Positions 11,496-38,090 of a stretch of 64,000 bases of DNA are shown piece by piece (position 1 is the stretch's first letter; every line of letters starts with the position of its first letter). Under the pieces are notes generated by a model, which saw only the letters and a program-made list of their open reading frames with translations, did not search any database and had not been told where the DNA came from. The translations under genes were made by a program, and so were the position numbers. This stretch comes from Minisyncoccota bacterium (lineage in GTDB: Bacteria; Patescibacteriota; Minisyncoccia; Phycocordibacterales; UBA9973): assembly GCA_041659785.1 (NCBI GenBank), contig JBAZXO010000003.1:1099-65098 (forward strand), in the 5' to 3' direction.

Positions 11496-11541
11496 TTTTA
11501 TATATTTTTTACTTGCCTAAAAATCAAACTAAGGCTTATAA

Positions 11542-11569
11542 ATTATAACAAATAAATCCTTTTTGCAAA
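11542..11569 (-). promoter_or_regulatory. candidate extended -10 promoter for the giant surface-protein gene
   Basis: Minus-strand reading TTGCAA...TGTTATAAT (TGnTATAAT extended -10), about 45 nt upstream of the ATG at 11495. Confidence 0.3.
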
Positions 11570-11622
11570 AGGGAAAAAGAGAGAAAATATTGTGGATAAC
11601 TAGTACCTCTAATTTCTGAAAT

Positions 11623-13302: not shown

Positions 13303-13313
13303 CCTTTATAAGT

Positions 13314-15410: not shown

Positions 15411-15476
15411 AATATTTTTTTAAAATTAATAAGATAACGACTATGTTAATTATATAGAGTTTAGCACAAAAAACAA

Positions 15477-17867
15477 CTAGACAACTATGTTGATAAGTCT
15501 GTTTTTCACATAGATTACCTTTTTCACCGTCTTGCCCAATATGTGCTTCAAAACAGTCTCGTCTGATAATGCTTCCTTTTTTATTTTCTCTTCATCATCA
15601 TCCGCTCTTATCATGATCTCCGTTCTGAATTTGCCGTTTATTTGCACTACTATTTTTATCTCTTCATCTTCCATTAGACTTTTGTCTTCTTTGGGCCAGC
15701 TAGAAAGGTTGATTGATTTCTTTTCTCCTAACATACTCCACAATTCTTCTGTGACGTGTGGCGCAAATGGTGAAAGAATTTGCAAAAACTTTTTATAATC
15801 TTCGAGTTCAATATTTTCTGTCGTGCCAGAGGACAGGCAGGCCTTTTCCATCTCTGTCGCTAATATCATCATTGAAGAAATTGCGGTGTTGAAATACATA
15901 CCTTCAATGTCTTCTGTGACTTTTTTGATTGTTTTATTTAGTAATTTCGAAAGTTTCGGCACAGAAAAATTTGGGCCGTGTCGGAGCCCGCTTGCGGGTA
16001 AAGCGGACGAATTTTTTTGTGTCGAAACTTTTACACCTATTCTCCAAACTTTTTCAATGAATCTTCTTGAGCCAATGATACTTTCTGTAGACCAAGCGAC
16101 AGATTGACTAAATGGTCCCATAAACATCTCATAGACACGCAGAGTGTCAGCCCCGTATATTTTCACCATTTCGTCAGGATTGATAACATTTCCAAGCGAT
16201 TTTGACATCTTTACACCCCCTTCCCCCAAGATCATTCCATGAGAAGTGCGTTTTTTATACGGTTCAGCTGTAGGAACAAGCTTTAAATCAAATAAGAATT
16301 TATGCCAAAAACGTGAATACAAGAGATGGAGAGTAGTGTGCTCGTTACCTCCATTATACCAATTTACCCCGCCCGTGGCTGGGTCGCTTCCAAGCCAATA
16401 TTTTAAATTCTTTTTATTAGCAAATGTTTTTTTATTTTTTGGATCTGTATAACGAAGATAATACCAGCTAGACCCTGCCCAGTTTGGCATCGTATCTGTT
16501 TCCCTCAAGGCCCTCCCTTTACACTTGGGGCATTTTGTATTGACCCATTTTGTAATATTTGCTAAAGGTGACTCACCACTATCTGTGGGTTCATAATTTT
16601 TAACTTTTGGAAGTTCTACGGGTAAATCACGCTCCGGTACTGGAACAATGCCACACTTCTTACAATGTACGACAGGTATCGGCTCTCCCCAATATCGCTG
16701 ACGAGAAAATACCCAATCACGAAGCTTGAATTTTGTAATTTTTTTTCCAAAATCTTCAAAACCTGCTTTTTGATAATTTTCCACAATAGGCAATTTAAAT
16801 TTTTCTGCGAATTCTTTATCTCGTATATCATCAGCCGGCACGGCCATTATTGCTCCTGTGCCATAGTGTGGAAGGACATAGTCAGCTATCCATATTGAAA
16901 TCTCTTCTTTGTTTGCGGGATTAATTGCTTTAATACCCTTAAGCTCTATCCCCGTCTTTACTTTGTCTGTAGAGGTGCGTTCTATGTCTGTTTTGTTTTT
17001 TACTTCTTTAATATATTTCTCAACTTCACTCCAGTTTTTTATTTTATCTTTTAATTCTTTTACCAACTCATGTTCTGGTGCAAGGACTAAATAAGTCGCC
17101 CCGAAAATGGTATCTGGACGTGTTGTAAACACCCGGACACCAGGTGTCCGGGTGGGGATAACTATTTTAAAATCTATTTCAGCACCTTCGCTTCTTCCTA
17201 TCCAGTTTCTCTGAGCTAATTTTATTTGTGGTAAATAGTCTACAGTATCTAAATCCTTATCGAGCCTGTCAGCATATTTTGTAATAGCGAGCATCCATTG
17301 TTCTTTTTCCCTTTTCTCTACAGGAGTTCCACACCTTTCACAAAGGCCACCGACGACTTCTTCATTTGCAAGCCCCGTCTTATCCTTCGGACACCAATTA
17401 ATCGTCATTTTAGCCTTATAAGCTAAGCCTTTTTTCAAAAACTGAAGAAATATCCACTGAGTCCATTTATAATACTTTGGGTCAGTTGTGTTTATTTCTC
17501 GTGACCAGTCAAAAGAAATGCCCAAAGACTTTATTTGTCTTCGAAAATTATCGGTATTTTTTTTAGTTACCACCCTTGGATCCTTGCCTGTTTTTATGGC
17601 AAAGTTTTCTGTCGGTAAACCAAAGGCATCCCAACCAATTGGGTATAAAACATTAAAACCTTGCAATCTTCTTTTCCTAGAAATAATATCCATGCCTACA
17701 TACGAACGAGGGTGTCCGACATGAAGCCCATCTCCTGATGGGTATGGAAATTCTATCAAGCTAAAATATTTAGGTTTTTTCGAAAAATCCTTGGCTTGGT
17801 ATGTTTTATTCTTATCCCAAACATTTTGCCACTTTTTTTCTATTTTTTTATGGTCGTATTCTTTCAT
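15477..17867 (-). CDS. leuS: leucyl-tRNA synthetase
   Basis: 796 aa. HVGH (HIGH-class) motif, PIGWDAFGLPTEN, VFTTRPDTIFGATYLVLAPEH, LHLLYSRFWHKF, KMSKSLGN motif. Contains GC-rich palindromes at 15987-15998, 16364-16385 and 17132-17152. Confidence 0.95.
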   Translation of the reverse strand: MKEYDHKKIEKKWQNVWDKNKTYQAKDFSKKPKYFSLIEFPYPSGDGLHVGHPRSYVGMDIISRKRRLQGFNVLYPIGWDAFGLPTENFAIKTGKDPRVVTKKNTDNFRRQIKSLGISFDWSREINTTDPKYYKWTQWIFLQFLKKGLAYKAKMTINWCPKDKTGLANEEVVGGLCERCGTPVEKREKEQWMLAITKYADRLDKDLDTVDYLPQIKLAQRNWIGRSEGAEIDFKIVIPTRTPGVRVFTTRPDTIFGATYLVLAPEHELVKELKDKIKNWSEVEKYIKEVKNKTDIERTSTDKVKTGIELKGIKAINPANKEEISIWIADYVLPHYGTGAIMAVPADDIRDKEFAEKFKLPIVENYQKAGFEDFGKKITKFKLRDWVFSRQRYWGEPIPVVHCKKCGIVPVPERDLPVELPKVKNYEPTDSGESPLANITKWVNTKCPKCKGRALRETDTMPNWAGSSWYYLRYTDPKNKKTFANKKNLKYWLGSDPATGGVNWYNGGNEHTTLHLLYSRFWHKFLFDLKLVPTAEPYKKRTSHGMILGEGGVKMSKSLGNVINPDEMVKIYGADTLRVYEMFMGPFSQSVAWSTESIIGSRRFIEKVWRIGVKVSTQKNSSALPASGLRHGPNFSVPKLSKLLNKTIKKVTEDIEGMYFNTAISSMMILATEMEKACLSSGTTENIELEDYKKFLQILSPFAPHVTEELWSMLGEKKSINLSSWPKEDKSLMEDEEIKIVVQINGKFRTEIMIRADDDEEKIKKEALSDETVLKHILGKTVKKVIYVKNRLINIVV

Positions 17868-19881: not shown

Positions 19882-20699
19882 ATTAAAAATTCAATTACGT
19901 CGCCATCTTGTACGATATATTCTTTACCCTCAGTTCGGACCCAACCTTTTTCACGGGCTTTAGCGAAACTCCCTGCTTCAATCAACTGATCATATGATAC
20001 CACTTCTGCACGAATAAACTTCTGCTCGAAATCTGTATGTATCGAACGGCCAGCAAAAGGTGCTGTCGCCCCACGCAAAGTGGTCCAAGCCCTGGATTCA
20101 TCTTCGCCTGTCGTAAAAAAAGTAATCAAATTTAATAAATTATATCCGGCCTTAATAAGGTTATCTAAACCTGTACCAAAAATCGGATCAACTTCTAGGT
20201 ATGGCCCAGGGAGCTTAGATATGAAATCTTTTTTTACATTCTCTGCTGCTTCTGAAGTGTTTAAAACATAAAGCGTGGGTTTTTTAATTCCCGCTTGTTC
20301 TAATTCAAAATTTATAACCTCTATATCAAAAAGTGGATCAATATGATCGTGAACATGAATCATATCTTTATCTTCAAAAATTCGCACAACTTCGATAATC
20401 GCATCCACCTCACGTATATGTGAAAGAAATTTATTACCGAGTCCTGCCCCTGTAGATGCGCCCTTTACAAGCCCGGCGATATCTACAAACTCCACCACTG
20501 CTGGAATAGTTTTCTTTGATTTAGATATAGCAGATAATTTAAGAAGTCTATCATCTGGCACAGGTACGATACCGACAGAAGGATCAATAGTACAAAAAGG
20601 ATAATTCTCTGCCGGCACACCCTTCTTAGTAAGAGCATTAAAAAGCGTGGATTTTCCCACGTTTGGCAGACCTACGATTCCGATTGATAGTGAAGACAT
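19878..20699 (-). CDS. ychF: Obg-family ATPase YchF (short form)
   Basis: N-terminus IGIVGLPNVGKSTLFNALT (G1), DIAGLVKGAS (G3), C-terminal TGS-like DGDVIEFLI. 273 aa. Start overlaps the 3' end of the upstream recombinase ORF by about 60 nt. Confidence 0.8.
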   Translation of the reverse strand: MSSLSIGIVGLPNVGKSTLFNALTKKGVPAENYPFCTIDPSVGIVPVPDDRLLKLSAISKSKKTIPAVVEFVDIAGLVKGASTGAGLGNKFLSHIREVDAIIEVVRIFEDKDMIHVHDHIDPLFDIEVINFELEQAGIKKPTLYVLNTSEAAENVKKDFISKLPGPYLEVDPIFGTGLDNLIKAGYNLLNLITFFTTGEDESRAWTTLRGATAPFAGRSIHTDFEQKFIRAEVVSYDQLIEAGSFAKAREKGWVRTEGKEYIVQDGDVIEFLI

Positions 20700-22284
20700 T
20701 GATATTTGATTCTATTGGAATATATCCATAAACTTGTAATTTTTCCCTTGTTCCGACCACCCTATCTATAACTGTTCTGATTATGTCTTTTTTTGAGCTA
20801 AAGTTCAAGTTATTACTTAATGCTTTTGATACTTTTTGAGTGAAGGTTTTTATCTCAGATAATTTCGGTAGTGTTTTTTCTCCAATTTTCTGATTTTCTA
20901 AATCAGCATTAGCTATTTGATTTTCGAATAAAGATATCTTCTCTTTAACAGGAGCAAGATATTCTTTTAATTGTTCAATTGTAATTACACCAGAGCCATA
21001 AGCCTTAGCGTAACGACCTTCCTGGTCTTTAAGTTTAGATATTTCTTTTCTAGTCTCTTCTGTATTTATAACAGAAGTACAATTTCCATTATTTTGATTA
21101 TTGATCCAACGTTCCACTTGCTTGGTTAATAATTCTGGTGAACTCATAAGTTCTGTAGTTTTTTCCCACACTAACGGATCTAATATCTTGGCATTTAGGC
21201 CCTTCTCTTTACAACTAGGCTGTAAAGGAAAACTTTTTATTCTATCAGTGCAACGATAATACAAATGTTTACCACGCTGTGGTCCTTCCCCTGCTCGTCT
21301 TTTACCACAATTGCACCATATTTTACCAGCCAAAAGATACTCATTTTTAGTATTTCTTTCAGACATTTCAAAATTTGATCTTAATATCTGTCCGACTCTA
21401 TTAAATAATTCTTCATCTATAATTTTAGGAGTAGGGATTTTTATCCATTCACTTTCTGGTTTCATTCGTCTACTGGTTTTCTTAATTTTTTTATATCCCT
21501 CTTTCTTCGTTGGATTAACTGGTATCGTAGCGTAAGAAGCTCCATAATGGCCTTCACCTATATATGTCCTATTCCTTAATAACGTACTCAACGTGCTAGT
21601 GTTCCAAACACCTCTTTTACTTTTACGAGGAGGTATGCCTAACTCTTGAAGTCTTCTGACAATACCTCTTAATCTTAATCCATCATTATCTACCCAAGAA
21701 AAAATACTTTTTACAATTTGAGTTTCTCTTTCATTTATTTCATAGTGACCTTGAAGAAAATCGGCATCTCCTCTCTTCCCTTTCTTTACTATAAAATTAT
21801 ATCCGTAAGGAGCTTCACTAACAATGATATGTCCCTCTTTTGCCTTTCGTACTTTACCTAGTCTAAATCGTTCTTTTATTTTCATTCTTTCGTATTCAGT
21901 AAATACTCCTCTCATTTTATACATAATAATATCCTCGTCTGTTTTTGGTTGTGGAATCGTAACGAAAAGAACCTCAATTTCTAATTCTTTTAATTCCTCT
22001 ATCACCACTTCCTGCCATGCACCTCGTCTTGCTAATCTATCTGGATCATAAATTAAAACTGCGTTCCATTTTTTTAGTTTTGCATCCATGCGAAGTTGAT
22101 CTAATGCTGGACGTGCAAGAGAATCACCACTCCAACCATTATCAATATATTGCTTGACTATGATATAGCCATTCTTTTCAGCGAATTGATTAACAGCAGA
22201 AAGTTGCGTTTCAATAGTTCCCTCGTTTTCTTGGTTTGAAGTTGAAACTCTTCCGTATGTTGCGATTAATTTTATTTTTTCCAT
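20638..22284 (-). CDS. large serine recombinase (phage-integrase type)
   Basis: N-terminal resolvase catalytic domain with YGRVSTSNQ (catalytic Ser) and DRLAR. Recombinase domain, Cys-rich zinc ribbon (CNCGKRR...YYRCTDR) and C-terminal coiled coil. 548 aa. Confidence 0.9.
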   Translation of the reverse strand: MEKIKLIATYGRVSTSNQENEGTIETQLSAVNQFAEKNGYIIVKQYIDNGWSGDSLARPALDQLRMDAKLKKWNAVLIYDPDRLARRGAWQEVVIEELKELEIEVLFVTIPQPKTDEDIIMYKMRGVFTEYERMKIKERFRLGKVRKAKEGHIIVSEAPYGYNFIVKKGKRGDADFLQGHYEINERETQIVKSIFSWVDNDGLRLRGIVRRLQELGIPPRKSKRGVWNTSTLSTLLRNRTYIGEGHYGASYATIPVNPTKKEGYKKIKKTSRRMKPESEWIKIPTPKIIDEELFNRVGQILRSNFEMSERNTKNEYLLAGKIWCNCGKRRAGEGPQRGKHLYYRCTDRIKSFPLQPSCKEKGLNAKILDPLVWEKTTELMSSPELLTKQVERWINNQNNGNCTSVINTEETRKEISKLKDQEGRYAKAYGSGVITIEQLKEYLAPVKEKISLFENQIANADLENQKIGEKTLPKLSEIKTFTQKVSKALSNNLNFSSKKDIIRTVIDRVVGTREKLQVYGYIPIESNINVFTINRNRRSAKRGKIHAF

Positions 22285-24809: not shown

Positions 24810-25757
24810 TTACTGCCAACAAATATCAGATTCCCCTCCTGTCGTTTCTTCTAAGTATTGTTCTACTTCACTAATCCCACCTATGGCATCAATTAAACCT
24901 AATTCTTTAGCTTTGGATCCTAGGACTGTTGAACCATCAGCAATGCTTCTAACTTTCTCTATGGGTATATTACGATTCTTAGATATCGCCTCAACAAAAT
25001 TGCCAAATACGATATTTACATCTCTTAGCATTAGTAGTCTTTCTTCGTTTGTAAGAGGTTTATCTGGGGATCCAGAATCCTTAAATTTACCTGAATTAAT
25101 TTCTTCAAAAATATATCCATCTTTCTTGTTCTTCTCAGCTACACTCACATAAGAGGCTGTTATACCAATAGCTCCTACATTAGAGTTTTTAGATGCGAAT
25201 ATCTTGTCAGCACTACTTATGGCCCAATAAGCGGAAGATGCCCCTACCTCTCTTATAAATGCCACGACAGGCTTCTCACTTCCCTTTATGGCATTAGCGA
25301 CCTCTTCACCTCCTGTCGGTGAACCCCCTCCTGAATCTACCTCAATTACAATTGCCTTTATTTTTTCATCCTCATTTGCTTGTTTAATTGCCCAAATAAT
25401 ATTTTGACTTGCTACTGTATTATAATCAAAAAGAGAGTCATTCTCACTGTGGTTTGGAATGTAAGTTAATAGCGTTCCGTGTAGTTCTATTCCCATGATA
25501 GAGCAATTATCATTTGTTGTGTCGCTAGAATCACTAATAGAAGAATCTGGGGATGAGTTATCTTTAAATGGGCCGACTATAAAAAGAGAATAAAAAAGAA
25601 TAGTAAATACGGTGACGATTAAGATAATTTTAACTATGCTTCCAATTAAATAGCCAAAGATATTAACATCACTCCATTTTCTAAAGCTTAACCATAATTC
25701 ATTTGTTTTGTTAAAAAGTTTTTTCATTTTTAAGTGCTTAGTTAAATAATAACACAT
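24810..25757 (-). CDS. sppA: signal peptide peptidase SppA-like (S49 family, 36K type)
   Basis: N-terminal TM anchor, then GGSPTGGEEVANAI...KPVVAFIREVGASSAYWAISSADKIFASKNSNVGAIGITASY matching S49 catalytic-region motifs. Confidence 0.65.
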   Translation of the reverse strand: MCYYLTKHLKMKKLFNKTNELWLSFRKWSDVNIFGYLIGSIVKIILIVTVFTILFYSLFIVGPFKDNSSPDSSISDSSDTTNDNCSIMGIELHGTLLTYIPNHSENDSLFDYNTVASQNIIWAIKQANEDEKIKAIVIEVDSGGGSPTGGEEVANAIKGSEKPVVAFIREVGASSAYWAISSADKIFASKNSNVGAIGITASYVSVAEKNKKDGYIFEEINSGKFKDSGSPDKPLTNEERLLMLRDVNIVFGNFVEAISKNRNIPIEKVRSIADGSTVLGSKAKELGLIDAIGGISEVEQYLEETTGGESDICWQ

Positions 25758-26177
25758 TTATTTATATCTCTTATAACATTCTTCTCTGTCTGTCTTTGCC
25801 TTAGCACGTATTTGGTCTGCCTCTATTTGTAGCTCTTGAAATGAAGGAGGCTTACAGTATTCTTGGAGTGTCATTTTGCCAGAAGTGATAAGATTATTTA
25901 CATTACTACCATGATCAGAATTAAGACAATCATTTTGTGATTCTGGTGAACTTAAATCTATGGCCAATTCACGATTCCTTTTTATTTCACTTTCAGCATT
26001 ATCGTTGATTTCATCAATACATTGATTCAATGGTTCCTTTGCCAGTTGATCCAACTGAGCCCTTTCTTCTAAAATTGCTTTCTCTTTATTTTCTTGAATA
26101 CTAGAAGAAATTATTTTATATCCGACTAAGGCAAGAAATACAACTCCTATTAAAACAATGATTTTTTTATTGTCCAT
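25758..26177 (-). CDS. membrane-anchored coiled-coil hypothetical protein
   Basis: 139 aa, N-terminal TM helix (IIVLIGVVFLALVGY), charged helical remainder with several Cys. Confidence 0.35.
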   Translation of the reverse strand: MDNKKIIVLIGVVFLALVGYKIISSSIQENKEKAILEERAQLDQLAKEPLNQCIDEINDNAESEIKRNRELAIDLSSPESQNDCLNSDHGSNVNNLITSGKMTLQEYCKPPSFQELQIEADQIRAKAKTDREECYKRYK

Positions 26178-26184
26178 AAAAATA

Positions 26185-26345
26185 AAAACTAGCTGATAAT
26201 AAGCTAGCGTAATGTTCTACTAGAAGCACAGAACACCATGCTAGCTGGACCTTTCGATCCCGTACCCTTTCGGATACGACCCAACGAAGAGTGCTAAACA
26301 TGGTGTTCAGTGACTTCGTTGGGTATTTTCGACCATATCCTAAAG
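26185..26345 (-). ncRNA. candidate structured RNA / 5'UTR element (GNRA-capped hairpins, 11-bp inverted repeat)
   Basis: Minus-strand reading shows CCCAACGAAG...CTTCGTTGGG (10-11 bp stem) and two adjacent GAAA-tetraloop hairpins (CGTATCC-GAAA-GGGTACG and GGATC-GAAA-GGTCC). No ORF. Lies 5' of the 25758-26177 gene in a 630-bp divergent spacer. Confidence 0.25.
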
Positions 26346-26810
26346 AAAATCTCTAAAGGGGTTAGGTCATCTCTATTAAATTGTATAGAAATTATACACC
26401 AAAAAAAGAGTTAAACAAAGAAGACAAAAAGGCTGGGGAAAATTAGAAATTTTTTTAGCCTTTTGAATTCATACATTGGAATTGGTTCGAGACAACCCCT
26501 ATCATGCTCTGTACGAAATACAATTCCAAATAGCCCTTATAAAACAAGATCTCAAAACTCGTTACTCGTACCAACACTTCAAGGTGGTATATTATTACCT
26601 TTTTCAATTTTGGAGTCGCAGACACGTGTCAGTATGTTAACCCCATCAGGCACAACGGACAGGAATTATTAATTGCGACAACACCCCTACCACCCCATCT
26701 AAATATAATTAATAAAATATCAAAACTAAGCTAGTGAAGATAAGGTCGATATTAAATCTTCAGAATACGAGCTAGTCTCTCGTGTAAATTTAATCTATTA
26801 AATTAATAAT

Positions 26811-27137
26811 ATGAAAACATTAAGTATTAACGAAATCTTAGAAGATAATCCATTTACTTCTAATTACCAAGGTTCAACCAAAACAAAAGAAATGTTAGAA
26901 CAACAGATAAAAAAAATTTGGGGTGAACAAGAGGTAAAGAATTATAATCCATATAAAAATGCATTAACTTTTGCATCGTGGATTAAGTTAGGTTACCGTC
27001 CTAAAAAAGGAAGTAAGGCATTAAAAAGTATTACCTTTGTCGAACGCAAAAACGAGAAAGGAGAAGTCATTAGTAAATATCCACGCACGATAAATTTATT
27101 CTATTATAGGTCCGTGGAACCTATAGCTAACAATTAA
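26811..27137 (+). CDS. small protein with possible ArdC-N-like ssDNA-binding region
   Basis: 108 aa. NPYKNALTFASWIKLGYRPKKGSKALKSITF resembles the W.TF.QA..LG..V.KGEK motif of the ArdC N-terminal / DUF1738 family (from memory, weak). Confidence 0.3.
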   Translation: MKTLSINEILEDNPFTSNYQGSTKTKEMLEQQIKKIWGEQEVKNYNPYKNALTFASWIKLGYRPKKGSKALKSITFVERKNEKGEVISKYPRTINLFYYRSVEPIANN

Positions 27138-27141
27138 CATT

Positions 27142-27720
27142 ATGAACACATATAAAAACGAGGTCCCTTCTTACAAAAGAGAAAAAATAAATCCTATTCA
27201 AGAAGAGATAGCAAAGAATGTTGGAACTTATAATCTCACTGCGATTATTGAAGAAGACAAAGAAACAGTTTCAAAGCTTAAAAATATTCCAAATTTAATC
27301 TGCTTCCTTTGCACGTTAAAAATTGGAAATGAAATTATAGGGGTAGGTCGTGGTAGTGCAAACTTAAATCGTATGAACCGTGGAATAGAAAGAGGTGTGA
27401 GGTATAGTTTTGGCAATTCTATAGTTGATGCAGTTGTTAGGGGTATAAAAAATCTCGATGCTCTATATTTTAAAACAACAAATCAACCAGAAACTAAAAT
27501 TCAGAATGAAGTTGATCTTGAGGGTCGTGACAAACAATCATTCTTTAATGATGAGGACATGCCACAAGAAGCCACAGACAAACAGCGAAACTTTTTAACT
27601 AAGTTAGTTGAAAAATGTGATGAAGAAGATAAGGAAGAATATCTGGATGCCTTGGCCTCTCCGTACCTATCAAAATTTCAATGCAGTGAGCTTATCCAAA
27701 AGCTTATGCCAATGAAATAA
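27142..27720 (+). CDS. hypothetical protein
   Basis: 192-aa ORF with acidic C-terminus. No family recognised. Confidence 0.4.
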   Translation: MNTYKNEVPSYKREKINPIQEEIAKNVGTYNLTAIIEEDKETVSKLKNIPNLICFLCTLKIGNEIIGVGRGSANLNRMNRGIERGVRYSFGNSIVDAVVRGIKNLDALYFKTTNQPETKIQNEVDLEGRDKQSFFNDEDMPQEATDKQRNFLTKLVEKCDEEDKEEYLDALASPYLSKFQCSELIQKLMPMK

Positions 27721-27740
27721 TTATTAACTTAATATAAAAA

Positions 27741-27977
27741 ATGATTACAAATACAATATCAGCTTTTGAAGCACCTCGACAAAGGAGTAGCTTCTTTTTA
27801 GAGGATAGCGACGAGCCAGGGATGGCAACAAGCTACCAAAAAAGAACTATCTACCGTCTTCTGTGTGAAAGAATGGAAGATGGTCAAGGTAGAGAAGAAA
27901 ATATAAATCAAATTTCTTATGTTTCAGAAGATGAAGCCAGAAATTGGATTGCCGAATTGGAGAATTCAATTTGGTAG
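27741..27977 (+). CDS. hypothetical protein
   Basis: 78-aa ORF directly followed by a terminator hairpin. Confidence 0.3.
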   Translation: MITNTISAFEAPRQRSSFFLEDSDEPGMATSYQKRTIYRLLCERMEDGQGREENINQISYVSEDEARNWIAELENSIW

Positions 27978-27992
27978 AATATATAAACATTA

Positions 27993-28027
27993 AATGGTGA
28001 GGTCCTTTGGGCTTCACCATTTTTTGT
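27993..28027 (+). terminator. rho-independent terminator between convergent genes, possibly bidirectional
   Basis: aatggtga-ggtcctttgggct-tcaccatt stem-loop followed by TTTTTG. Sits between the + strand 27741-27977 ORF and the - strand gene ending at 28039. Confidence 0.55.
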
Positions 28028-28038
28028 GCTACTTTATA

Positions 28039-29391
28039 TTATTTTTTTATTCTTACTGTCACTAGATATTTAATAGGATCTATCGTTACACCTGGTATCT
28101 TGTTTGCAAATGGATTTGGCATTTTATATATAAATGGTGTTTCAGATAGATAATCAAAGACAATATATAAATGATAATTTGGGTCCTTCCGAGCAATTGT
28201 TATTTCATTCTCAGAGATAAAAAATCTAAAGGCAATAGATGGAATGTTTCTAACAGCTTTAACTTCTATGTGTTTTTCTGACCCGTCAAAATCAAAAGAT
28301 AATACATCATAGCCTAAAGTATCATCCTTGAGAGAAACTTGTTCAACTTTATTTACCATCTTAGAATAATTTTTATTTAACTCCCCTATTTCATGTTTTA
28401 TAACAATTTTTTCAGCGAAATCTCCAGCTGTTCTGTTATTGCTATCTCGGAGTTCAAAATCAATTTTTTGTAGCCTAGGAGATGTTTTTCTTCTTGTTTT
28501 TACACCTAGATCAGCATCTTCATCAATTTCCATTTCAATTATTTGGGGCTTTATGTTTGAGATATCAGGGAGTTTTAATCCTCCAGTTATAGTATTAACT
28601 ATTTCTTCTTGTTCTTCCGTCGTTTTTTTCTCTAAGCTTTCAATAACCCTTAGATAGTTAGGGTTAATGGTATAAATCTGCCATCCATTGTTTGTATTTA
28701 AATAATTAAAATATCCACTATCACTAAAATCTCGTAGAGAAAAACTCTCTAAAATAATCTCAATATCTTTTTTTGATAGATTAGATGTAATTTTTTCACC
28801 TTCCTTTTTAATATAAGAAGAAATTAGGAGCATGTCAAAAAATCTCTTAACATTATCTGAGAAATCATCAATACTTAATTCTTTGCTTTTTTTATCTAAA
28901 ATATCTGCATAAGTAGTTTTGTTTTTAGAATTTCTGTATTCGTGTATTAAATCTACAACAAAAGGGACTTCATTTTTATCATTTATCCAGCACACAAATA
29001 ACTTATATTCATCAAAAGATATATATTCTAAAGAGTGTAAAAGAGTTAATAACACCTCCATCGGAGCAATTTTAATTGACAAATTATCGTTTAATTTTGG
29101 ACAATCTAAATATACTTTCATTATCTGCTCATCTAAAATCTTTTGTTTATAAAGAGAATTTAAAAAAGTTTCTCCAGCGTTTGAAATTTGTAAATTGTCC
29201 CCACCAAGATTAACTATCAATCCAAGATATCTCAAAGTAATACTATTACGTGTCGTAAGTTCGTGAAAATCATTAGTCAAATCATTATAGATTTTATTTA
29301 CGATATCACTTGTATATTCTTTCTGTTTCGCTTTCTTCCAGAAATTCTTGGTTCCTTTATTGTCTAAATATTTTTTATATTCTTCAATCAT
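28039..29391 (-). CDS. DUF3883-domain restriction-endonuclease-like protein (last gene of RM-like operon)
   Basis: C-terminal GYDVLSFDFDGSEKHIEVKA...FFISENEITIARKDPNYHLYIVFD matches the DUF3883 (NO VEIN C-terminal, PD-(D/E)xK-like E-V-K) signature. N-terminal roughly 300 aa unassigned. Overlaps the C5-MTase stop by 4 nt. Confidence 0.6.
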   Translation of the reverse strand: MIEEYKKYLDNKGTKNFWKKAKQKEYTSDIVNKIYNDLTNDFHELTTRNSITLRYLGLIVNLGGDNLQISNAGETFLNSLYKQKILDEQIMKVYLDCPKLNDNLSIKIAPMEVLLTLLHSLEYISFDEYKLFVCWINDKNEVPFVVDLIHEYRNSKNKTTYADILDKKSKELSIDDFSDNVKRFFDMLLISSYIKKEGEKITSNLSKKDIEIILESFSLRDFSDSGYFNYLNTNNGWQIYTINPNYLRVIESLEKKTTEEQEEIVNTITGGLKLPDISNIKPQIIEMEIDEDADLGVKTRRKTSPRLQKIDFELRDSNNRTAGDFAEKIVIKHEIGELNKNYSKMVNKVEQVSLKDDTLGYDVLSFDFDGSEKHIEVKAVRNIPSIAFRFFISENEITIARKDPNYHLYIVFDYLSETPFIYKMPNPFANKIPGVTIDPIKYLVTVRIKK

Positions 29392-30500
29392 AGTTTTAAA
29401 ACTTTGCGAATCTTTAACGCAATAGATTGTGCTAATAATGGAGGTACTGAATTTCCAATTTGTATACCAACTGAACCCCTACTACCATAAAAGACAAAAT
29501 CATCATCAAAAGATTGTATCCGAGCTGCTTCACGGGGTGTTAGCGCTCGATGTTGTAGTGGATGAGTTACACGACCCACAGAAGGAGTATCGAATCTTGT
29601 GGTTATTGTATATGCAGGTTTGTTCCTGTTAATTCTTCCGAATGCCCCACTGTGTATAGATTTTGTTTGTAGTGCTAATGGTAAACTTGACCTTCCTTCA
29701 CCTTCTTTAATGCTTTTAAGTATCTTAATTATTCTAGGGTCATGTTTAGTCGCTTGGTGGTTATATATCTTTTTACTTTTTCCACGTCTTTCTTTTTGAT
29801 ATTGAGTAAGATTTTTATTAAAAGCATACTCAGATTCAAACTGTCCTGAGCCTGCTGATACCTTTGGTAAATCTAAAATCGTTTCTGCCACAGTTACGTA
29901 TGGTCTTTGTTTTTGAGGACCATGTGTCTTGTCTGGAAAAAAATCTTCAGGATCTATACCTATCCTATTACCTATAAACACTGCCCTTCTTCTTAATTGA
30001 GGAACACCATAATCTGCAGCAAGTAAAACATGAACCTTGGTTTCATATCCAATTTCTTTAAACTTTTTTATTATTTCATTTTTTACAGCTCCTCCGTGGA
30101 TATTTAGCATTGCTGCTACATTTTCCATAACAAATATTTTGGGCTTAACGTCTTTTACTACACGAATAAATTCCTTAAAAAGTTCATTGCGTGGATCATT
30201 TAAAAACGCACCATCATTACGTATTCTGCGACCTGCCATACTAAAACCCTGGCAAGGTGGCCCCCCAACAACAACACAAATATCTTTTTCTCCATTTAGT
30301 AATTCTTTTGAATCTACTTTAGTTATGTCTTCAACGATCATTTTTGTTCCAGGATGATTTTTTATGTAGGTATTAGCAATTTCTGCATTATATTCATTCG
30401 CAGACACTACATCAAAACCAGCCTTCTTAAAACCCACAGAAATACCACCCACTCCTGCGAATAAATCTATTATTTTTAGTTTACTTTTCTTGCCAGCCAT
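29388..30500 (-). CDS. DNA (cytosine-5)-methyltransferase
   Basis: Motif I DLFAGVGGISVGF, motif IV GGPPCQGFS, motif VI ENV, motif X QIGNSVPPLLA. 370 aa. TGA stop. Confidence 0.9.
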   Translation of the reverse strand: MAGKKSKLKIIDLFAGVGGISVGFKKAGFDVVSANEYNAEIANTYIKNHPGTKMIVEDITKVDSKELLNGEKDICVVVGGPPCQGFSMAGRRIRNDGAFLNDPRNELFKEFIRVVKDVKPKIFVMENVAAMLNIHGGAVKNEIIKKFKEIGYETKVHVLLAADYGVPQLRRRAVFIGNRIGIDPEDFFPDKTHGPQKQRPYVTVAETILDLPKVSAGSGQFESEYAFNKNLTQYQKERRGKSKKIYNHQATKHDPRIIKILKSIKEGEGRSSLPLALQTKSIHSGAFGRINRNKPAYTITTRFDTPSVGRVTHPLQHRALTPREAARIQSFDDDFVFYGSRGSVGIQIGNSVPPLLAQSIALKIRKVLKL

Positions 30501-32070
30501 ACTCTTGTAATTTATTTTTTTTATAATTAAAGTTGTTTTTTAATAAGTTTTCTATATTTGTAACTTCACCTTCTTTGTTAGTATACAAATTATTTTCCAC
30601 AATGAAAGGTATTAGTTTCTCATATAAAGAATCAGAAGTCAGATAACCATTATTTTTTTCTATCCAAGATTGAACCTTTCTTACAATATTCTTTTCACCA
30701 TCCTCGTTGTTTAACTTCTTTTCCTTAGCTTTTACTTTCGTATCTTTTATAAAATTATAAACAAAATCACCCCTCAATGTATTGTTTCTATTGAGTCCCT
30801 GCGTACCAGAGGCAACAGCCTGTTCTTGATAAACAACGTTTATAAGATGAAAACCAGCACTAGTCACAGCATCCATTACAGCCTTCCAAATATTTAGATT
30901 TCTATTGTGGAAAGTAAATGAGAGATACTTTTCATCCTTTAAAACTCTATATAATTCAGCATAGACCTTTTTCATTCTTGATGAATAATCTTCGTATTTT
31001 TTATTACGATACGGATCATATATAATTTCACTTTCATAATTTACTTTATTTCTAAGCCACCCATTCCAAAACATACTTAACCCTAAATAAGCAATACTAT
31101 CACCGTAGGGTGGATCAGTAAATATATATGAAACAGATTCTGATTTAATATTTTTTAGATTAGTAGCATCAATATTAAAGATTTGAGCATCCTTTGAGTT
31201 AAATATTCCTGCTACTTCTTGTTTGCCTTTTTTGATTTTATGGAATCGATGCTTAAAACTATTAAAAATATTTTTTTCTGTATGAATTTTTGGAGCCCAT
31301 AATTTACTAATAACCCACCCCGACTTGCCATTAACTGATTCGGGATTACCAGGTATCATTTTAGAAACGTTTGGCAACATGGAAGTAAAACATAAAAGTA
31401 TTAGATTTTTAACTTTTTGGTCCTTAATTTCATCTATGTCTTTAATTATTGAACCAAGCACCACTAATGCACGATCTGTAAAAAATTCATTCAGCTTACT
31501 TTTCCCATTTCTCTTAACAAATTTTAAAATTTCGTCTTTCGGATAGAAGATTTTATTTTCCTTATCTAATTTATGGAAAACCTCTGTTGCTTTTTTAAAA
31601 ACTTTCTGGTCATACGAGTCTACATTTTTTATGAACTTACCACAGCTATGGCATAATGCTCTAATTTTCGAGAATTCTTCGTGATCCCAAATTGAATTTT
31701 CAAAGGCTGTAATTCCACCACACTTAGGACATTTAGTATTATATAATTCAATAAACTTTTTATAGTTCTTTTCGTATATATAATCAAATGCTTTTTCAAA
31801 TTCTTCTAAGTTAACGTTATTTATTGTATTTTCAGTAATAAAACAAGCCATAGGATTTAAATCTATTCCTATCGCCTTACGATTATTTTTAATTGATTCA
31901 ATAATAACGACCCCACTTCCCATAAAGGGATCAAGAACCGTTTCCCCTGGCTTTGAAAAATTCAAAATATAGTCACTCACTACATTGTGTGGTTTTCTCC
32001 CCCAATACTTATGCATCATGTAGTGAGTTGGGTGAGTTTTTGCGGTAATGTTTTTATTTATTTTATTCAT
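30481..32070 (-). CDS. amino-DNA methyltransferase (N6-adenine type, DPPY; alpha-like motif order) with zinc-ribbon insert
   Basis: N-terminal FMGSGVVIIE (AdoMet motif I) and later IFTDPPYG (motif IV). CPKCGG...CHSCGK zinc ribbon. Overlaps the C5-MTase start by 20 nt. Confidence 0.8.
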   Translation of the reverse strand: MNKINKNITAKTHPTHYMMHKYWGRKPHNVVSDYILNFSKPGETVLDPFMGSGVVIIESIKNNRKAIGIDLNPMACFITENTINNVNLEEFEKAFDYIYEKNYKKFIELYNTKCPKCGGITAFENSIWDHEEFSKIRALCHSCGKFIKNVDSYDQKVFKKATEVFHKLDKENKIFYPKDEILKFVKRNGKSKLNEFFTDRALVVLGSIIKDIDEIKDQKVKNLILLCFTSMLPNVSKMIPGNPESVNGKSGWVISKLWAPKIHTEKNIFNSFKHRFHKIKKGKQEVAGIFNSKDAQIFNIDATNLKNIKSESVSYIFTDPPYGDSIAYLGLSMFWNGWLRNKVNYESEIIYDPYRNKKYEDYSSRMKKVYAELYRVLKDEKYLSFTFHNRNLNIWKAVMDAVTSAGFHLINVVYQEQAVASGTQGLNRNNTLRGDFVYNFIKDTKVKAKEKKLNNEDGEKNIVRKVQSWIEKNNGYLTSDSLYEKLIPFIVENNLYTNKEGEVTNIENLLKNNFNYKKNKLQEYGWQEK

Positions 32071-32131
32071 ACGAATTAAACGTCATAATATTTGTTATCA
32101 CACAATAGATAAAAAATTGATTCAATATCAA

Positions 32132-34606
32132 TTACCGCCCTTGTTCATGATAACTTAAAATATCCTTATCTGAGTATAACATATTTAAATACAATTCTGG
32201 AGCATTTTCTGTATACATAATGAGTTTTCCTGAATAATAAAGCTCCTTAAACTTTTTCACCCTTTCCCTAACTTCAGTTATATATTCTGGCCTAATTTTT
32301 ATGCCGTTTTTGTCTTTTTCGAGATATTTATTGTAATGAACAATCCCATAAAATCTTGGATCAATATGATTCTTTGTTTCAAGAAGTTTTTGTATCTGAT
32401 GTCTTTCTTCGTCTTCTCTAAATCGTAATATTCTTTCTACAACCTCCTTTGATTCAGTGTGCTCTTTTGTGATTGCTAAAAAAGTATTAAATTCAAATTT
32501 GCTAATAAATGGGTCCGAACCATAATCATCTAGTAATTGTATTAAAACATCATATATAAATAAAAATGGATAGATTTTAAAATCTTTAAAAGAAACACGT
32601 TTTGTTGATTCAATATATTTATTATAAGAACCATAAATTGGATTCCAATATAATATTTTTTCAAGTTGTAAAGTAAGAATGTCTTGATAAATATCCACAT
32701 TTGAGAAATCTTTTGTCTTTTTACAAATTTCTTCAAATGAAATTGTCGGTTTGAGTGGAGATTCAGCTGATATAAAACCACTGATCTTGCTTAACATTAA
32801 AGCACGGAAACCTGCTGTCATATTTTTACCAGGATATTTATCATTAACAATCTTTTGTATTTTTTTTATAAATTCTTTTTCATCTATATTTGGATTATCT
32901 TTGATAATTTTAATCCCCTCAAAGTTAACTTGAAAATACTGATTCTGTTGCCCACGTTTCCAATATAAATTATCTTTTGTCCACTTGTCTAAGTATATTG
33001 AATACTCTCTCCATTCTTTTGCAATTACGTCATTTCTTATATCTTTCGAATATACAACTTCATTGCTTTTGAATATCTCAACAACTTCAGCATCAAAAAT
33101 AACTTCACATCCATTTAAGTCATAGATAAAAAGATCTTTTCCATCTTTATGGATTTTTTTAAGTCCTCTAACCCCATTTTTTATATCAAGTCCTTCAAGA
33201 ATTAAATTTGCAGTACGATAATTCCCTATGAAATCAAGAATCAAAACATTTTCTTTTTTAGGAGCAACACGTAAACCACGACCCATATGTTGAATAAATA
33301 TTGTTTTTGATTCTGTGGGCCTTAAAAATAACAAACAAGAAACATCAGGAATATCGACACCTTCGTTGAACATATCTACAACAAAAGCCACCTGACATTT
33401 ACCATCTCTAAAGTGTTTTATTAATAAAGTTTTATCTTTATCTTCAACTCCTTCAAGCCCTAGGCTACGAGAATGTACGGCAATCGCATTAATACCTGCA
33501 GATTTAAATTTAGTAGCACATCTTTCAGCATGTTCTATGGATGCACAAAAACCTATAGTTTTTCTATCACCAACAACTTCTTTAAATTTTTTTAAAATAG
33601 CTTGATCTCTTTCATCAATCAAAAGATGCTTATTAAGGTCCTTAGTATCATACTTAAATCCATTAAAATATATGTCGGAATAATCAATACTATCTTTAAA
33701 TCAAAAATATTGGAAAGGTACTAAATAACCTTGCTCTATGGCCTGTTCCTGCCCCATCTCAAATACAACATTGTTGTTATAAAATCCTAATATATCTTTT
33801 CGATCCATTCGATCTGGTGTTGCTGTTAATCCTAGAAAAAATTTCGGTTTAAAATAAGAAAATATTAATCCATAGGTAGGTGCAGCAGTATGATGTGTCT
33901 CGTCTATAATTATATAATCGAAATAGTCTGGAGAAAAACTTTCAATATGTTTCTTTTTACCTAATGTTTGTATAGACGCAAATAATATTTTTTTATCTTT
34001 CTCTTTCTGTTTTCCATTATAAAAACCAAGGTCATTTTTTCTACCAGGAAAGACTCGCTCGAATGATTCTTTGGTTTGCTTAAGAATTTCATTAATATGA
34101 ACAACAAAAAGTATTTTCGAGGCTTTAGTGTCTTTTGCATCTAAAGCAGACAATATTGTTTTACCTAAACCTGTTGCAAGTATTACGACAGCCCTATCTG
34201 ATCCGTTTTCCCTTGTTGTATTAAGATTAACAAGTGCCTTTTCTTGAGCTTCGTGTGGTTTAATTTCTTTTCCTCTCTTTAGATAAAGATTAAAAAGTTC
34301 TTCGTCTGCTATAAATTGTCTTCGTAAAAAGTATTTTACTTTTTCTCTATCTTTTGTAATCAAGTCACTACCAATAGTTATTGTTTTAAGTAATAATTGA
34401 TTTGTACTTACTAACTGGCTAGTTCCCTCTTTACTTTCATTGAAATTTATTAAATAACTAGCATAATCTGTTTTTATCTCTAACAGAGCAACATCACCAT
34501 CGGTGATGTTTGTAATGTGTTTTTTAAAATTTGTACTTAAATCATCAAAAAGAATCTCGAGGAGATTTTTTAAATCTATATTTTTAATATCAGAAAGTAA
34601 ATTCAT
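32132..34606 (-). pseudogene. SF2 DEAH-type helicase/restriction-subunit-like gene split by a single in-frame TGA (N-half 33701-34606, C-half 32132-33622)
   Basis: N-half: ILATGLGKT (motif I), IIDETHH (motif II), LGLTATP (motif III). C-half: FNEGVDIPDV (motif V), QHMGRGLR (motif VI). Both halves share one reading frame, separated only by TGA at 33701-33703, then 26 sense codons to a TTG start. Confidence 0.65.
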
Positions 34607-34609
34607 GGA

Positions 34610-36802
34610 TTATTTATTATCCAGGGTCTCACTAGCAAAAATTGCAGTGTGCATATTTTTAGGAGTAAGAATTACTGGCCACCAGAATGGTGAACCCATC
34701 CAGCCTTGTTCTTCTTTGCCATTTACTCTAATTAACATTAATACTGGAATGTCATCTGCTATCCTTTTAGCAATAGTAAGGGCCACTTCTCCAGTACCAG
34801 ATCCAGCATCGTCTGTAAATCTGCCATCTGATTTACAACGAGATAAATTACTATCAGTTCTCACCACAACTCCAACTTTTCCGTTTTGTGAAATACTGAC
34901 CGAGTTTTTTGATAAATGTTCTATACTTGCTTTAAAAGCCTTAACATCCCATTCATACCCATTTTGTTCAGAAATAAAAGTCTTTTTTATTTTATCTAAA
35001 ATAGAAAGGGATTGCTCAACTGGAATTAAAAAATGATCTGATGTTGTTTCAGCTTGTAACCCTAAAATTTCTTTATCTAAATCCTCTATATCTTTTTTTA
35101 TGTTACTTTTATAACCCGTCTGGAAACCAATAGGTAAAAGTCTTTTGTGGGGTTTAAGAGTAGTTATACTAGAAAGCATTATTTTGTTAGGCGAACAAGG
35201 TACAAGTTTATCACTCGTGTCTTTGCGTATAAAATAAATACCATTATTATGTGAACCATTTAGAAAAGCCTCCCTTAATGCATTATCAAATTCATGTATG
35301 CGTTTCATTACTTCATAGATACTACGAGTCGTATATAAACGAGTTACTGCTAAGTCCTCTTTAGATCTAGCACCATACATGCGACAGTGCTGTAAGACAG
35401 TGTCTTGCTGAAATTTTTTAGGATTTCTACCATAGTAAAAACCTATCATGTTTTTAATCGTAATCCCACGATCCAAAATTTGACCTCCTATAAAAATATT
35501 TAGTGGAGTTCTTAATCTAAGCTGTCCCTTGCTGTCCAAGAGCGCTTTTACATCTTTATCTGAATTAACTTTTTCTACTACAAGCATCCCTTTTGTTAAA
35601 ACATCTGATACTTCATGCAAAACAACAGAAAAAATTGGTAACTGCAACCCAGAAAGTTCCACAGATGGTTTTAAATCATTGTATGCTTCCTCAACTAGAA
35701 CATTAAATAATGCTTGGTCCTCTTTTGCAATCCTAACTAGTTCTTCGTTAAGTTTATTCACAACTTCTTCTTGCCAATTATGAGAATTTCTAGATTGTTC
35801 AGTGTGAATTAGAAAACTATAATTTTCTTGTTTTTCTCCTTTATTTTCTTGCTGAATGCGACGTATACTACCACCAACAATAAAATTCATTATTGAATTT
35901 CTAATTGTTCTTGTAGATGGACTTGTAAAAACTTCTTCTATCTTGAAAGATCTACGATCGGCCCTTTTAAGAGTCTTCCTTACTTTCAAAATTTCTAATT
36001 CCTCAATTGGAACCTCTTTGTAAACATGAAATGCTGTCGTTCCCTCTTCCTCGCTTTCAATAAAATAGTAATCACCTCCCACATAATCTTTATGGATAGG
36101 AACTAACACAGTGAAAGCTGGTCGTTTGGGTAAAAAAAGTGATTCTGAATCTTCGCTATCATCCGATTGTAAATATAACGAATATGGTGTTGCTGTGACT
36201 TGTAATAAATCTGATTGTTTAACCGTGTTTCGTATATCGTCTATTTGTTGAGCAATTTTTCCTTGTTCAATTGAACCACTTTCTTTTTCTTTATGAAAGC
36301 TAATGCTTGCAAAATCTGCTTCGTCGTCAATTATGAGAATCTTTTTATTTTTTAAATCAGGATAAGTGGTAGTAAGTGTGCTTAACACATGTCTAAGATT
36401 ATTAGTTTCTTTCTTTGCAACAATAATCAACTTTTGACTTAACTCATATGGCACCATATTTTTAGGGAAAAGCATGATGTCATGTATTTGAACTTTACTA
36501 TCCTCCTCGAATACCTGAAAATCCTCATGTAATCTTTTTAATGTCTGTTCAGTAAGTGGCTTAGTACCTTTTGTAAGTATTATCGTAATATCGTAATCAT
36601 TATCAAATGCCAAAGCCATTACACCCAAAAAAGCACGAGTTTTTCCACTCTGCACCTTACCAAGTAAAATACCAGGCTTTTTCAAGTTTGTGTCAGAATC
36701 AATCAGTTTAACAACAGTTTCTTCTATACAACTTTTTAAAGAGTCATCATCTTTTCGTTTATTGGTTAGAGTATTATAAAAATATCCTTTTTTCATATTC
36801 AT
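34610..36802 (-). CDS. P-loop SF2-like NTPase resembling Z1-domain proteins (first gene of RM-like operon)
   Basis: 730 aa. LLGKVQSGKT Walker A near the N-terminus, LIIDDEADFAS (DEAD-like Walker B), LLQVTATP (motif III), C-terminal LQHCRMYGAR (motif VI-like Q..R..G.R). Z1 assignment is from memory of the GxVQSGKT signature. Confidence 0.5.
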   Translation of the reverse strand: MNMKKGYFYNTLTNKRKDDDSLKSCIEETVVKLIDSDTNLKKPGILLGKVQSGKTRAFLGVMALAFDNDYDITIILTKGTKPLTEQTLKRLHEDFQVFEEDSKVQIHDIMLFPKNMVPYELSQKLIIVAKKETNNLRHVLSTLTTTYPDLKNKKILIIDDEADFASISFHKEKESGSIEQGKIAQQIDDIRNTVKQSDLLQVTATPYSLYLQSDDSEDSESLFLPKRPAFTVLVPIHKDYVGGDYYFIESEEEGTTAFHVYKEVPIEELEILKVRKTLKRADRRSFKIEEVFTSPSTRTIRNSIMNFIVGGSIRRIQQENKGEKQENYSFLIHTEQSRNSHNWQEEVVNKLNEELVRIAKEDQALFNVLVEEAYNDLKPSVELSGLQLPIFSVVLHEVSDVLTKGMLVVEKVNSDKDVKALLDSKGQLRLRTPLNIFIGGQILDRGITIKNMIGFYYGRNPKKFQQDTVLQHCRMYGARSKEDLAVTRLYTTRSIYEVMKRIHEFDNALREAFLNGSHNNGIYFIRKDTSDKLVPCSPNKIMLSSITTLKPHKRLLPIGFQTGYKSNIKKDIEDLDKEILGLQAETTSDHFLIPVEQSLSILDKIKKTFISEQNGYEWDVKAFKASIEHLSKNSVSISQNGKVGVVVRTDSNLSRCKSDGRFTDDAGSGTGEVALTIAKRIADDIPVLMLIRVNGKEEQGWMGSPFWWPVILTPKNMHTAIFASETLDNK

Positions 36803-37718
36803 ATCATAATTAATTAAATCTCAATACTAACTAAGATTTTTATATTTCAAAACACTCTAAAAAGTATAGCACTTTCAGCTTAATTTTTAAAGGGTTTTTA
36901 GGTAAATTTCGAAATAGACATTTAATAGAACTGTAGTAAAACTAATTTGTTTTTATTTATTTTTTATGTTATAATATATTCATACGATTGAAAAAGTTAG
37001 CTGTTAAAAGACAACAAACTTCACCCCCGAGCATAAAGATTTAAGATATAAGGTTAAGTTGAGTTATGTATAAAGATTTAAGATTAAAGATAAAGTTATG
37101 TTATGGAAAACATTAACAAATCTTTGTTTTTGGGGAACTCAAATAAAAAAAACTCCAATAAAACCTTGTATTACGATTGATATCCGAATATGAGGCAAAC
37201 CACTAATGAGAGATTCAGGTGTTGATGAAAGAGAGCTGGGAAAATGGTGTTCGACTTCCACCCAGCCTTGTGATCAGCATCGGAGTCTCACTGATTGATA
37301 TAGGAATAATTAAGTAAAGTAACGACATATCACCGATATTACTTTATGAAGGGGGTTCGCTATTTAAATCACACTGTTAATTGCATATCTATTATTTTTG
37401 AGCAAATTTTATTTAACACCTATACGTATTATAAATATTCTAAGTTACGGTGTTTCGAATAACGAGAAGCTAAAAAACACATCCAAATCTCTATCAAGGG
37501 GTAAGTCGAGCTCGTACCCTAAAGAGTATTTATTTAGCTCGCCTAAACCCATAATCAACCCCACTCTTTAATGGAGGTGGTATTTTAATAGTAAACTCAA
37601 AAGGAATAAATTTATCAGTTATAGAATGTCGTGGTGTGCCTGCTCCATTCCAATTGATAGTGACATAAGAAAACTGTAGCAAATTACAAGCTAAAAATAA
37701 AGAATATATTTAAAAAAT

Positions 37719-38090
37719 TTATTTTGCTTTTAAAATATATTCTTTAACTTTCTCTATCAATTCATTTATAGGATGCTGAGTCTTAACCATATAGTCTACT
37801 GCACCTAGCTGAAGTGCTTCTTTTATTTTACTATCTTCACCTAAATTAGACATAACTATCACTGGTATATTACGTAAATCTTCATCTGCTTTCAACTGTG
37901 ACAATACCTCCATGCCGTTTACTTTAGGTAAAAGAATATCCAAGAGGATAGCATCAGGTCTATTTTTCTTTACTAGAGGCAAGACTACACTACCATCTTT
38001 CGCGAGAATAACTTTGAAATTTTTTTCTTCAAATTTTTCTTGAAGGACACTACTCAATATATCTTCATCTTCAACTATAAGTATTGTCAT
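37719..38090 (-). CDS. single-domain response regulator (CheY-like receiver)
   Basis: ILIVEDE...LLDILLP receiver-domain signature with Asp pocket. 123 aa. Confidence 0.8.
   Translation of the reverse strand: MTILIVEDEDILSSVLQEKFEEKNFKVILAKDGSVVLPLVKKNRPDAILLDILLPKVNGMEVLSQLKADEDLRNIPVIVMSNLGEDSKIKEALQLGAVDYMVKTQHPINELIEKVKEYILKAK

Follow-up and report, generated by a model that had tools for sequence, protein, structure and literature searches.

How does a helicase gene that lies beside two intact DNA methyltransferase genes come to carry a TGA in the middle of its reading frame, and what has become of its product? Our analysis of this locus, within the 64,000-nt stretch of DNA that we call the window, indicates that the helicase gene has very probably suffered a real and very recent loss-of-function nonsense mutation. 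In the mechanism we propose, a single G>T transversion would have turned the conserved Gly302 codon GGA into TGA, at a site that follows motif III and lies near the boundary of the two RecA-like lobes of the SF2 ATPase. Truncation at this point would leave a 301-aa RecA1 piece and, to judge from the domain architecture, abolish function. A translocase/recognition subunit would thus be lost while both methyltransferases and the other genes of the cluster stay intact. The event is an ordinary gene knockout, not a recoding event.

A single reading frame with one internal TGA

On the minus strand, window positions 34606..32132 translate as one frame of 825 codons with one internal stop, and we treat the whole interval (32132..34606, minus strand; 824 sense codons plus the internal TGA) as a helicase pseudogene. 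The premature stop is codon 302, at 33701..33703 on the minus strand (plus-strand letters tca), and the translation across it runs ...AIEQGYLVPFQYF, stop, FKDSIDYSDIYFNGFKYDTKDLNKHLLIDERD..., or in short ...GYLVPFQYF, stop, FKDSIDY.... Upstream of the break, the N-terminal fragment (33701..34606, minus strand) is 301 aa long and holds the RecA1 lobe only (Pfam ResIII, 3.3e-39). The in-frame remainder (32132..33700, minus strand) holds the RecA2 lobe (Helicase_C) and a C-terminal helical/winged-helix domain of about 300 aa, and has no start codon of its own adjoining the stop. Exactly 26 sense codons (33700..33623) separate the TGA from a TTG (33620..33622, minus strand) at which the ORF caller starts a C-half of 496 aa (Pfam Helicase_C, 4.7e-13). 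This TTG corresponds to an internal Leu329 in intact relatives, and starting there would lose FKDSIDYSDIYFNGFKYDTKDLNKHL, which the alignment of homologs marks as a highly conserved segment of the family. The earlier note had described two helicase halves in the same frame, split by one TGA, with 26 sense codons before the TTG start of the C-half; translation reproduces both the coordinates and the description exactly.

That the two halves share a frame is not a matter of chance, since single, full-length proteins align with 99-100% of the joined sequence, with E-values reported as 0. In public records they are annotated as two separate genes: the N-half is MFA5932247.1, a "DEAD/DEAH box helicase family protein", and the C-half ORF (32132-33622) is MFA5932246.1, an "AlwI family type II restriction endonuclease". 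Read through the stop, the translation has the SF2 ATPase motifs ATGLGKT (I), DETHH (II), TATP (III) and QHMGRGLR (VI), all of them present.

Native form of the gene and age of the allele

Is the gene perhaps two genes by nature? We searched for homologs with the joined sequence, placing an X at the stop, and obtained 7266 matches, the best 120 of which were aligned with MAFFT. Each of these 120 is a single protein that spans 88-100% of the query; their length is nearly always 800-870 aa, and a few are shorter, for example P0020, which is ended by a contig edge. The column of the stop holds Gly in 112 of the 120 sequences and Ala in the other 8, and the same Gly is found in SauUSI (PDB 7clg), where PFHYFGVTD aligns with PFQYF, stop, FKD. 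At the level of DNA we assembled 82 loci with both halves, 79 from a scan of one genome per species and 3 contigs from an exact protein look-up. The frame is single and uninterrupted at 81 of them; the one exception, L081, matches the window with 100% identity. Among the loci that allowed a direct reading of the junction codon, nine have GGA, one GGC and one GGT. A natively split gene is ruled out by these unsplit homologs and uninterrupted loci, and the comparison with orthologous loci that the earlier note had proposed thus comes down on the side of a one-piece gene with GGA in the closest relatives; homologs that are natively two genes, which the note had named as evidence to the contrary, do not occur among the best 120. 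In the window the two RecA-like lobes do not lie in one uninterrupted polypeptide, codon 302 falling between motif III and the Helicase_C region, and since the related loci are uninterrupted, we regard the window helicase as a pseudogene of the SF2 family.

The nearest alleles locate the change to the base. Two of them, one from a Rifle groundwater metagenome (L001) and one from the Candidatus Nomurabacteria MAG RIFOXYB1_FULL_39_16 (L002, MFWB01000008.1), have the entire five-gene cluster in common with the window at 95.7% nucleotide identity over 8776 bp with one gap, and encode an intact helicase of 824 aa. A third, in the Logan assembly of SRR14932545 (L082), is closer still, with 98.5% identity over 5357 bp (80 substitutions, 0 indels), and its helicase is again intact at 824 aa; this allele and that of the window disagree at 8 codons, and at 6 of these L082 has the derived state. 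At the decisive position all three read CAATATTTTGGATTTAAAG and the window reads CAATATTTTTGATTTAAAG, that is TTT GGA TTT as opposed to TTT TGA TTT, a G>T change that leaves the length unchanged. The base that makes the stop is window 33703 (A on the plus strand, C in the relatives), so that on the minus strand G>T converts GGA (Gly) into TGA. With homologs unsplit among the best 120 and GGA in relatives at 95.7% and 98.5% identity, the earlier proposal, that a nonsense mutation recently broke a gene which is normally one piece, is supported.

How recent is the lesion? We polarised the 36 differences between the helicase genes of the window and L082, using L002 as outgroup. The window lineage accounts for fifteen of them (13 synonymous changes, the missense change K130T and the nonsense change), and the changes on this lineage downstream of the stop, four in number, are all synonymous, a pattern that leads us to a very young lesion. 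The gene offers about 487 synonymous and 1982 non-synonymous sites, and roughly 50 non-synonymous changes would be expected had the whole branch been neutral, as compared with 1 observed. By these counts the stop would date from about the last tenth of a short branch, unless selection is still acting on the gene. The C-half shows no relaxed selection, either in the post-stop changes or in the helicase dN/dS, which is 0.078 upstream of the stop and 0.086 downstream. The undecayed state of the C-half would fit a very young lesion, and would equally fit continued expression of the C-half under selection. The four neighbouring genes, both methyltransferases included, are intact and have dN/dS values of 0.017-0.059.

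Readings of the TGA

Could the TGA be an error of sequencing, consensus or assembly, or a minority variant, in an organism whose true codon is GGA and whose 824-aa helicase is intact? The sequence comes from a metagenome-assembled genome, and the change is of one base beside a T run (TTTT-G to TTTTT). Moreover the allele is known from one population: a scan of JGI metagenome contigs in which both alleles were allowed gave two contigs, both GGA and identical to L002, with no further sighting of TGA. Set against this is the recurrence of the exact 301-aa truncated product, which is present in NCBI (MFA5932247.1, from a MAG of a Candidatus Paceibacterota bacterium), in JGI on a contig of 85,481 bp, and in an independent Logan assembly of run SRR18595301, whose contig corresponds to window 27952-37136, is 100% identical over 9185 bp and is unbroken at the stop. 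The recurrence of TGA in a second assembly argues against an assembler artefact; the two assemblies may share reads. A literature search for the run and protein accessions found nothing. The change is also a substitution, whereas homopolymer errors typically give indels, and consensus-level substitution errors are rare in short-read assemblies. We therefore regard an artefact as improbable, if the most serious of the competing readings. Less probable again, and in our judgment quite unlikely, is a helicase that carries the stop and still functions, whether by low-level UGA readthrough, which would yield a throttled supply of full-length enzyme, or as a split helicase made from separate halves. 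The lack of further damage, in the synonymous post-stop changes and the C-half dN/dS given above, is what such a helicase would lead one to expect, although a very young mutation explains the undecayed sequence equally well. The stop also lies near the RecA-lobe boundary, where splitting is structurally least damaging, yet no sampled homolog is split at that site. Start-site rules, too, appear loose in a genome that has no Shine-Dalgarno motifs: upstream of the 41 window genes we found no Shine-Dalgarno-like motif, the leaders being merely AT-rich, and ATG is the start codon in 38 of the 41. Since no window gene has such a motif, analysis of ribosome binding or reinitiation at the C-half is uninformative; the only nearby in-frame start, however, is the TTG 26 codons on, with its loss of a highly conserved segment. 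Near-cognate readthrough of UGA inserts Trp, and here it would do so in place of a nearly invariant Gly; the base directly after the helicase stop is U, which in E. coli favours efficient termination, and no stimulatory hairpin was found after the stop.

What if the codon is not a stop at all? The candidate phyla radiation, to which the organism belongs, includes code-25 lineages, TGA reassignment having been completed in Gracilibacteria and Absconditabacteria, and here the TGA occupies a conserved Gly codon, so that one may ask whether it encodes Gly (code 25), Trp (code 4) or selenocysteine. TGA is also rare as a stop, the 43 ORFs of at least 100 aa in the window ending in TAA 33 times, in TAG 6 times and in TGA 4 times including the premature one. 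Each of the three other genes ended by TGA has another stop within 0-7 codons, and for that reason these genes are no strict proof that TGA means stop. On the other hand, when ORFs were listed with TGA as a sense codon, the helicase stop was the only mid-gene TGA in real genes of the window and no other real gene pair was fused, which rejects codes 25 and 4; two ORFs free of in-frame TGA are as long as 2484 and 1248 aa. In YchF and in the C5 methyltransferase the Pfam profile runs to its end just before the TGA stop, close relatives use GGA at the helicase codon, and no tRNA gene was found in the 64,000-nt window. The location of the stop on a Gly codon is itself unremarkable, as 97 single-base changes in the helicase gene could give TGA, and 15 of them are GGA>TGA. 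Selenocysteine and stimulated readthrough were likewise rejected: no SECIS-like hairpin follows the UGA, the 86 nt around and after it fold more weakly than shuffled sequence (z = +1.24), and Cys occurs at the stop column in 0 of the best 120 homologs, which have Gly or Ala only. A frameshift bypass at TTTTTGA was rejected by reasoning, since the N-half and the C-half are already in the same frame and a frameshift would leave that frame, not restore it. An altered code or recoding is accordingly, in our estimate, extremely improbable, and the arguments by which the earlier note had discounted code 25, namely that long genes lack in-frame TGA and that the C5 methyltransferase uses TGA as a genuine stop, stand up, the second of them short of strict proof. 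We attach just as slight a probability to a subtler variant, in which a Paceibacteria-type lineage reads UGA inefficiently as Gly or Trp, either as a nascent reassignment or as a readthrough throttle on a potentially self-toxic translocase. What keeps this idea alive is the combination of no post-stop decay, the rarity of TGA as a stop and a stop that sits on a Gly codon; were it true, the helicase gene would not be dead.

The helicase module and its relation to known systems

We return to the reading that we prefer, a recent nonsense mutation in the helicase gene, and ask what kind of system has been struck. Downstream on the same strand lie an N6/N4 DNA methyltransferase of 529 aa (30481..32070, minus strand), a C5 cytosine DNA methyltransferase of 370 aa (29388..30500, minus strand), whose terminal TGA overlaps the start of the next gene as ATGA, and a NOV_C/DUF3883 protein of 450 aa (28039..29391, minus strand; Pfam NOV_C, 4.9e-15; PADLOC matches PDC-S36 and PD-T4-1), all three intact. 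Neither methyltransferase is shortened, and both are colinear with the corresponding genes of L002 and L082; with the purifying selection seen on them the earlier statement that they are intact holds. The association is a recurrent one: the subfamily of about 820 aa to which the helicase belongs travels with N6/N4 and C5 methyltransferases and a NOV_C/DUF3883 protein, all three being present at L003, L004 and L005, and at L007 a contig end falls within the C5 methyltransferase gene.

The restriction-modification-like five-gene cassette as a whole (28038..36892) has about 95.7% nucleotide identity with Candidatus Nomurabacteria RIFOXYB1_FULL_39_16, where it occupies L002 positions 7734-16569, bordered by the same two flanks but inverted relative to the window. 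The flanks themselves (window 24810-28027 corresponding to L002 3395-7393, and window 36950-37523 to L002 17597-18159) are only 67-82% identical, and homology at the cassette border stops exactly at the NOV_C stop codon. The contrast in identity between cassette and flanks, together with the reversed orientation between the same flanks, suggests a recent horizontal exchange or an independent insertion at a hotspot. We looked at the cassette borders for terminal repeats that might explain the inversion and found no convincing inverted or direct ones.

Several features of the surroundings may be recorded here. Beside the cassette, at window 37095-37523, some 430 nt of non-coding sequence without an ORF of at least 100 aa are about 82% conserved with the Nomurabacteria genome, and an Rfam search of this conserved non-coding flank (36800-37750) gave no match even at E <= 1; just upstream of the stretch, at 37033-37106, is a 37-nt tandem pair. 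The sole Rfam family to reach threshold in the window is the LOOT RNA (RF03000), at 26247-26368 on the minus strand (68.1 bits; gathering score 46.4). A large serine recombinase of 548 aa (20638-22284, minus strand; Resolvase, Recombinase and Zn_ribbon_recom) lies some 6 kb from the cassette and overlaps the 3' end of ychF; the cassette may be part of a larger integrated element marked by this gene.

What would the intact helicase have done? For its ATPase core the closest solved structure is SauUSI (7clg; E 3.7e-77, query residues 78-473), and its best PADLOC match is mREase_IV (3.5e-79). Modelled with AlphaFold (mean pLDDT 84.9), the C-half has the RecA2 lobe followed by the helical/winged-helix domain of about 300 aa, and the best non-helicase fold matches of this half are the AlwI-family nickase Nt.BspD6I and the DNA-binding domain of BpuJI. 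In Foldseek, the C-terminal domain matches Nt.BspD6I (5liq) with E 6e-06 over 307 columns at a modest query-normalised TM of 0.36; the binding domain of BpuJI (5hlt) is another match, again with modest TM-scores. At the sequence level the Pfam profile RE_AlwI matches the C-half weakly (1.2e-06) and in its N-terminal, recognition part (profile positions 45-130 of 441), no C-half match reaches the catalytic part of that profile, and a 70-sequence alignment holds no invariant acidic pair or residues in the C-terminal 300 aa or so. With the FokI-like catalytic domain unmatched and no invariant acidic residues, the C-half is not supported as an AlwI-family Type II endonuclease; in the model the C-terminal domain looks like a sequence-recognition domain and not a nuclease, and the public name overstates the identity of the C-half.

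Where, then, might a nuclease reside? Distant relatives of about 850 aa have a clear N-terminal PD-(D/E)XK-type motif (IDF...KYAIExDG; Pfam PF18741); a deletion and substitutions have removed this motif from the subfamily of about 820 aa to which the window helicase belongs (helicase codons 1-105, window 34606-34290). The helicase's own N-terminal nuclease motif is degenerate, and the broken protein was probably not itself a nuclease. In the earlier designation of this protein as a presumed restriction/translocase subunit, "restriction" is too specific for a protein with a degenerate nuclease motif and a recognition-like C-terminal domain. DUF3883 has been placed in the PD-(D/E)XK superfamily (PMC3424549), and in the nuclease YenY4I it forms the catalytic domain (PMC6765204); the neighbouring DUF3883/NOV_C protein is the likelier nuclease of the module, a candidate of PD-(D/E)XK type. 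We infer a division of labour in which the helicase would provide translocation and target recognition and the DUF3883 protein cleavage.

For annotation, the practical consequence is that two public gene records represent one freshly broken gene, and that the AlwI name is misleading. More broadly, the locus records, cleanly and with a date, how restriction-modification decay begins in an uncultured bacterium of groundwater type from the candidate phyla radiation, and intact sister alleles are available for comparison. The module itself may also merit characterisation: it combines a SauUSI-like ATPase, which has a degenerate nuclease motif and a probable Type IIS-like recognition domain, with two methyltransferases and a DUF3883 protein.

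Among known systems, SauUSI, an ATP-dependent Type IV restriction enzyme (PDB 7clg), has the ATPase core and the mutated Gly in common with the window helicase. The resemblance ends at both termini: the N-terminal PLD nuclease of SauUSI is absent from the window helicase by Pfam, the match to 7clg beginning at chain residue 181, past the nuclease, and the C-terminal DUF3427 of SauUSI, the modification-sensing/specificity domain, has no Pfam match in the window helicase. Unlike SauUSI, moreover, the window helicase shares an operon-like cluster with two methyltransferases, an arrangement that suggests a system protected by modification rather than dependent on it. The C-terminal 300 aa or so would seem instead to resemble, in fold, the recognition domains of the Type IIS enzymes Nt.BspD6I (with the AlwI family) and BpuJI; from the AlwI family proper the C-half differs in having neither a match to the catalytic part nor the invariant acidic pair. 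As to the lesion, there is nothing unusual in the window when it is set beside the decay of restriction-modification systems by point mutation, although the loss of restriction is here something we infer: in those systems a restriction or translocase gene is inactivated and the methyltransferases are retained, and here one nonsense mutation falls in the ATP-dependent subunit while both methyltransferases and the other genes stay intact under purifying selection.
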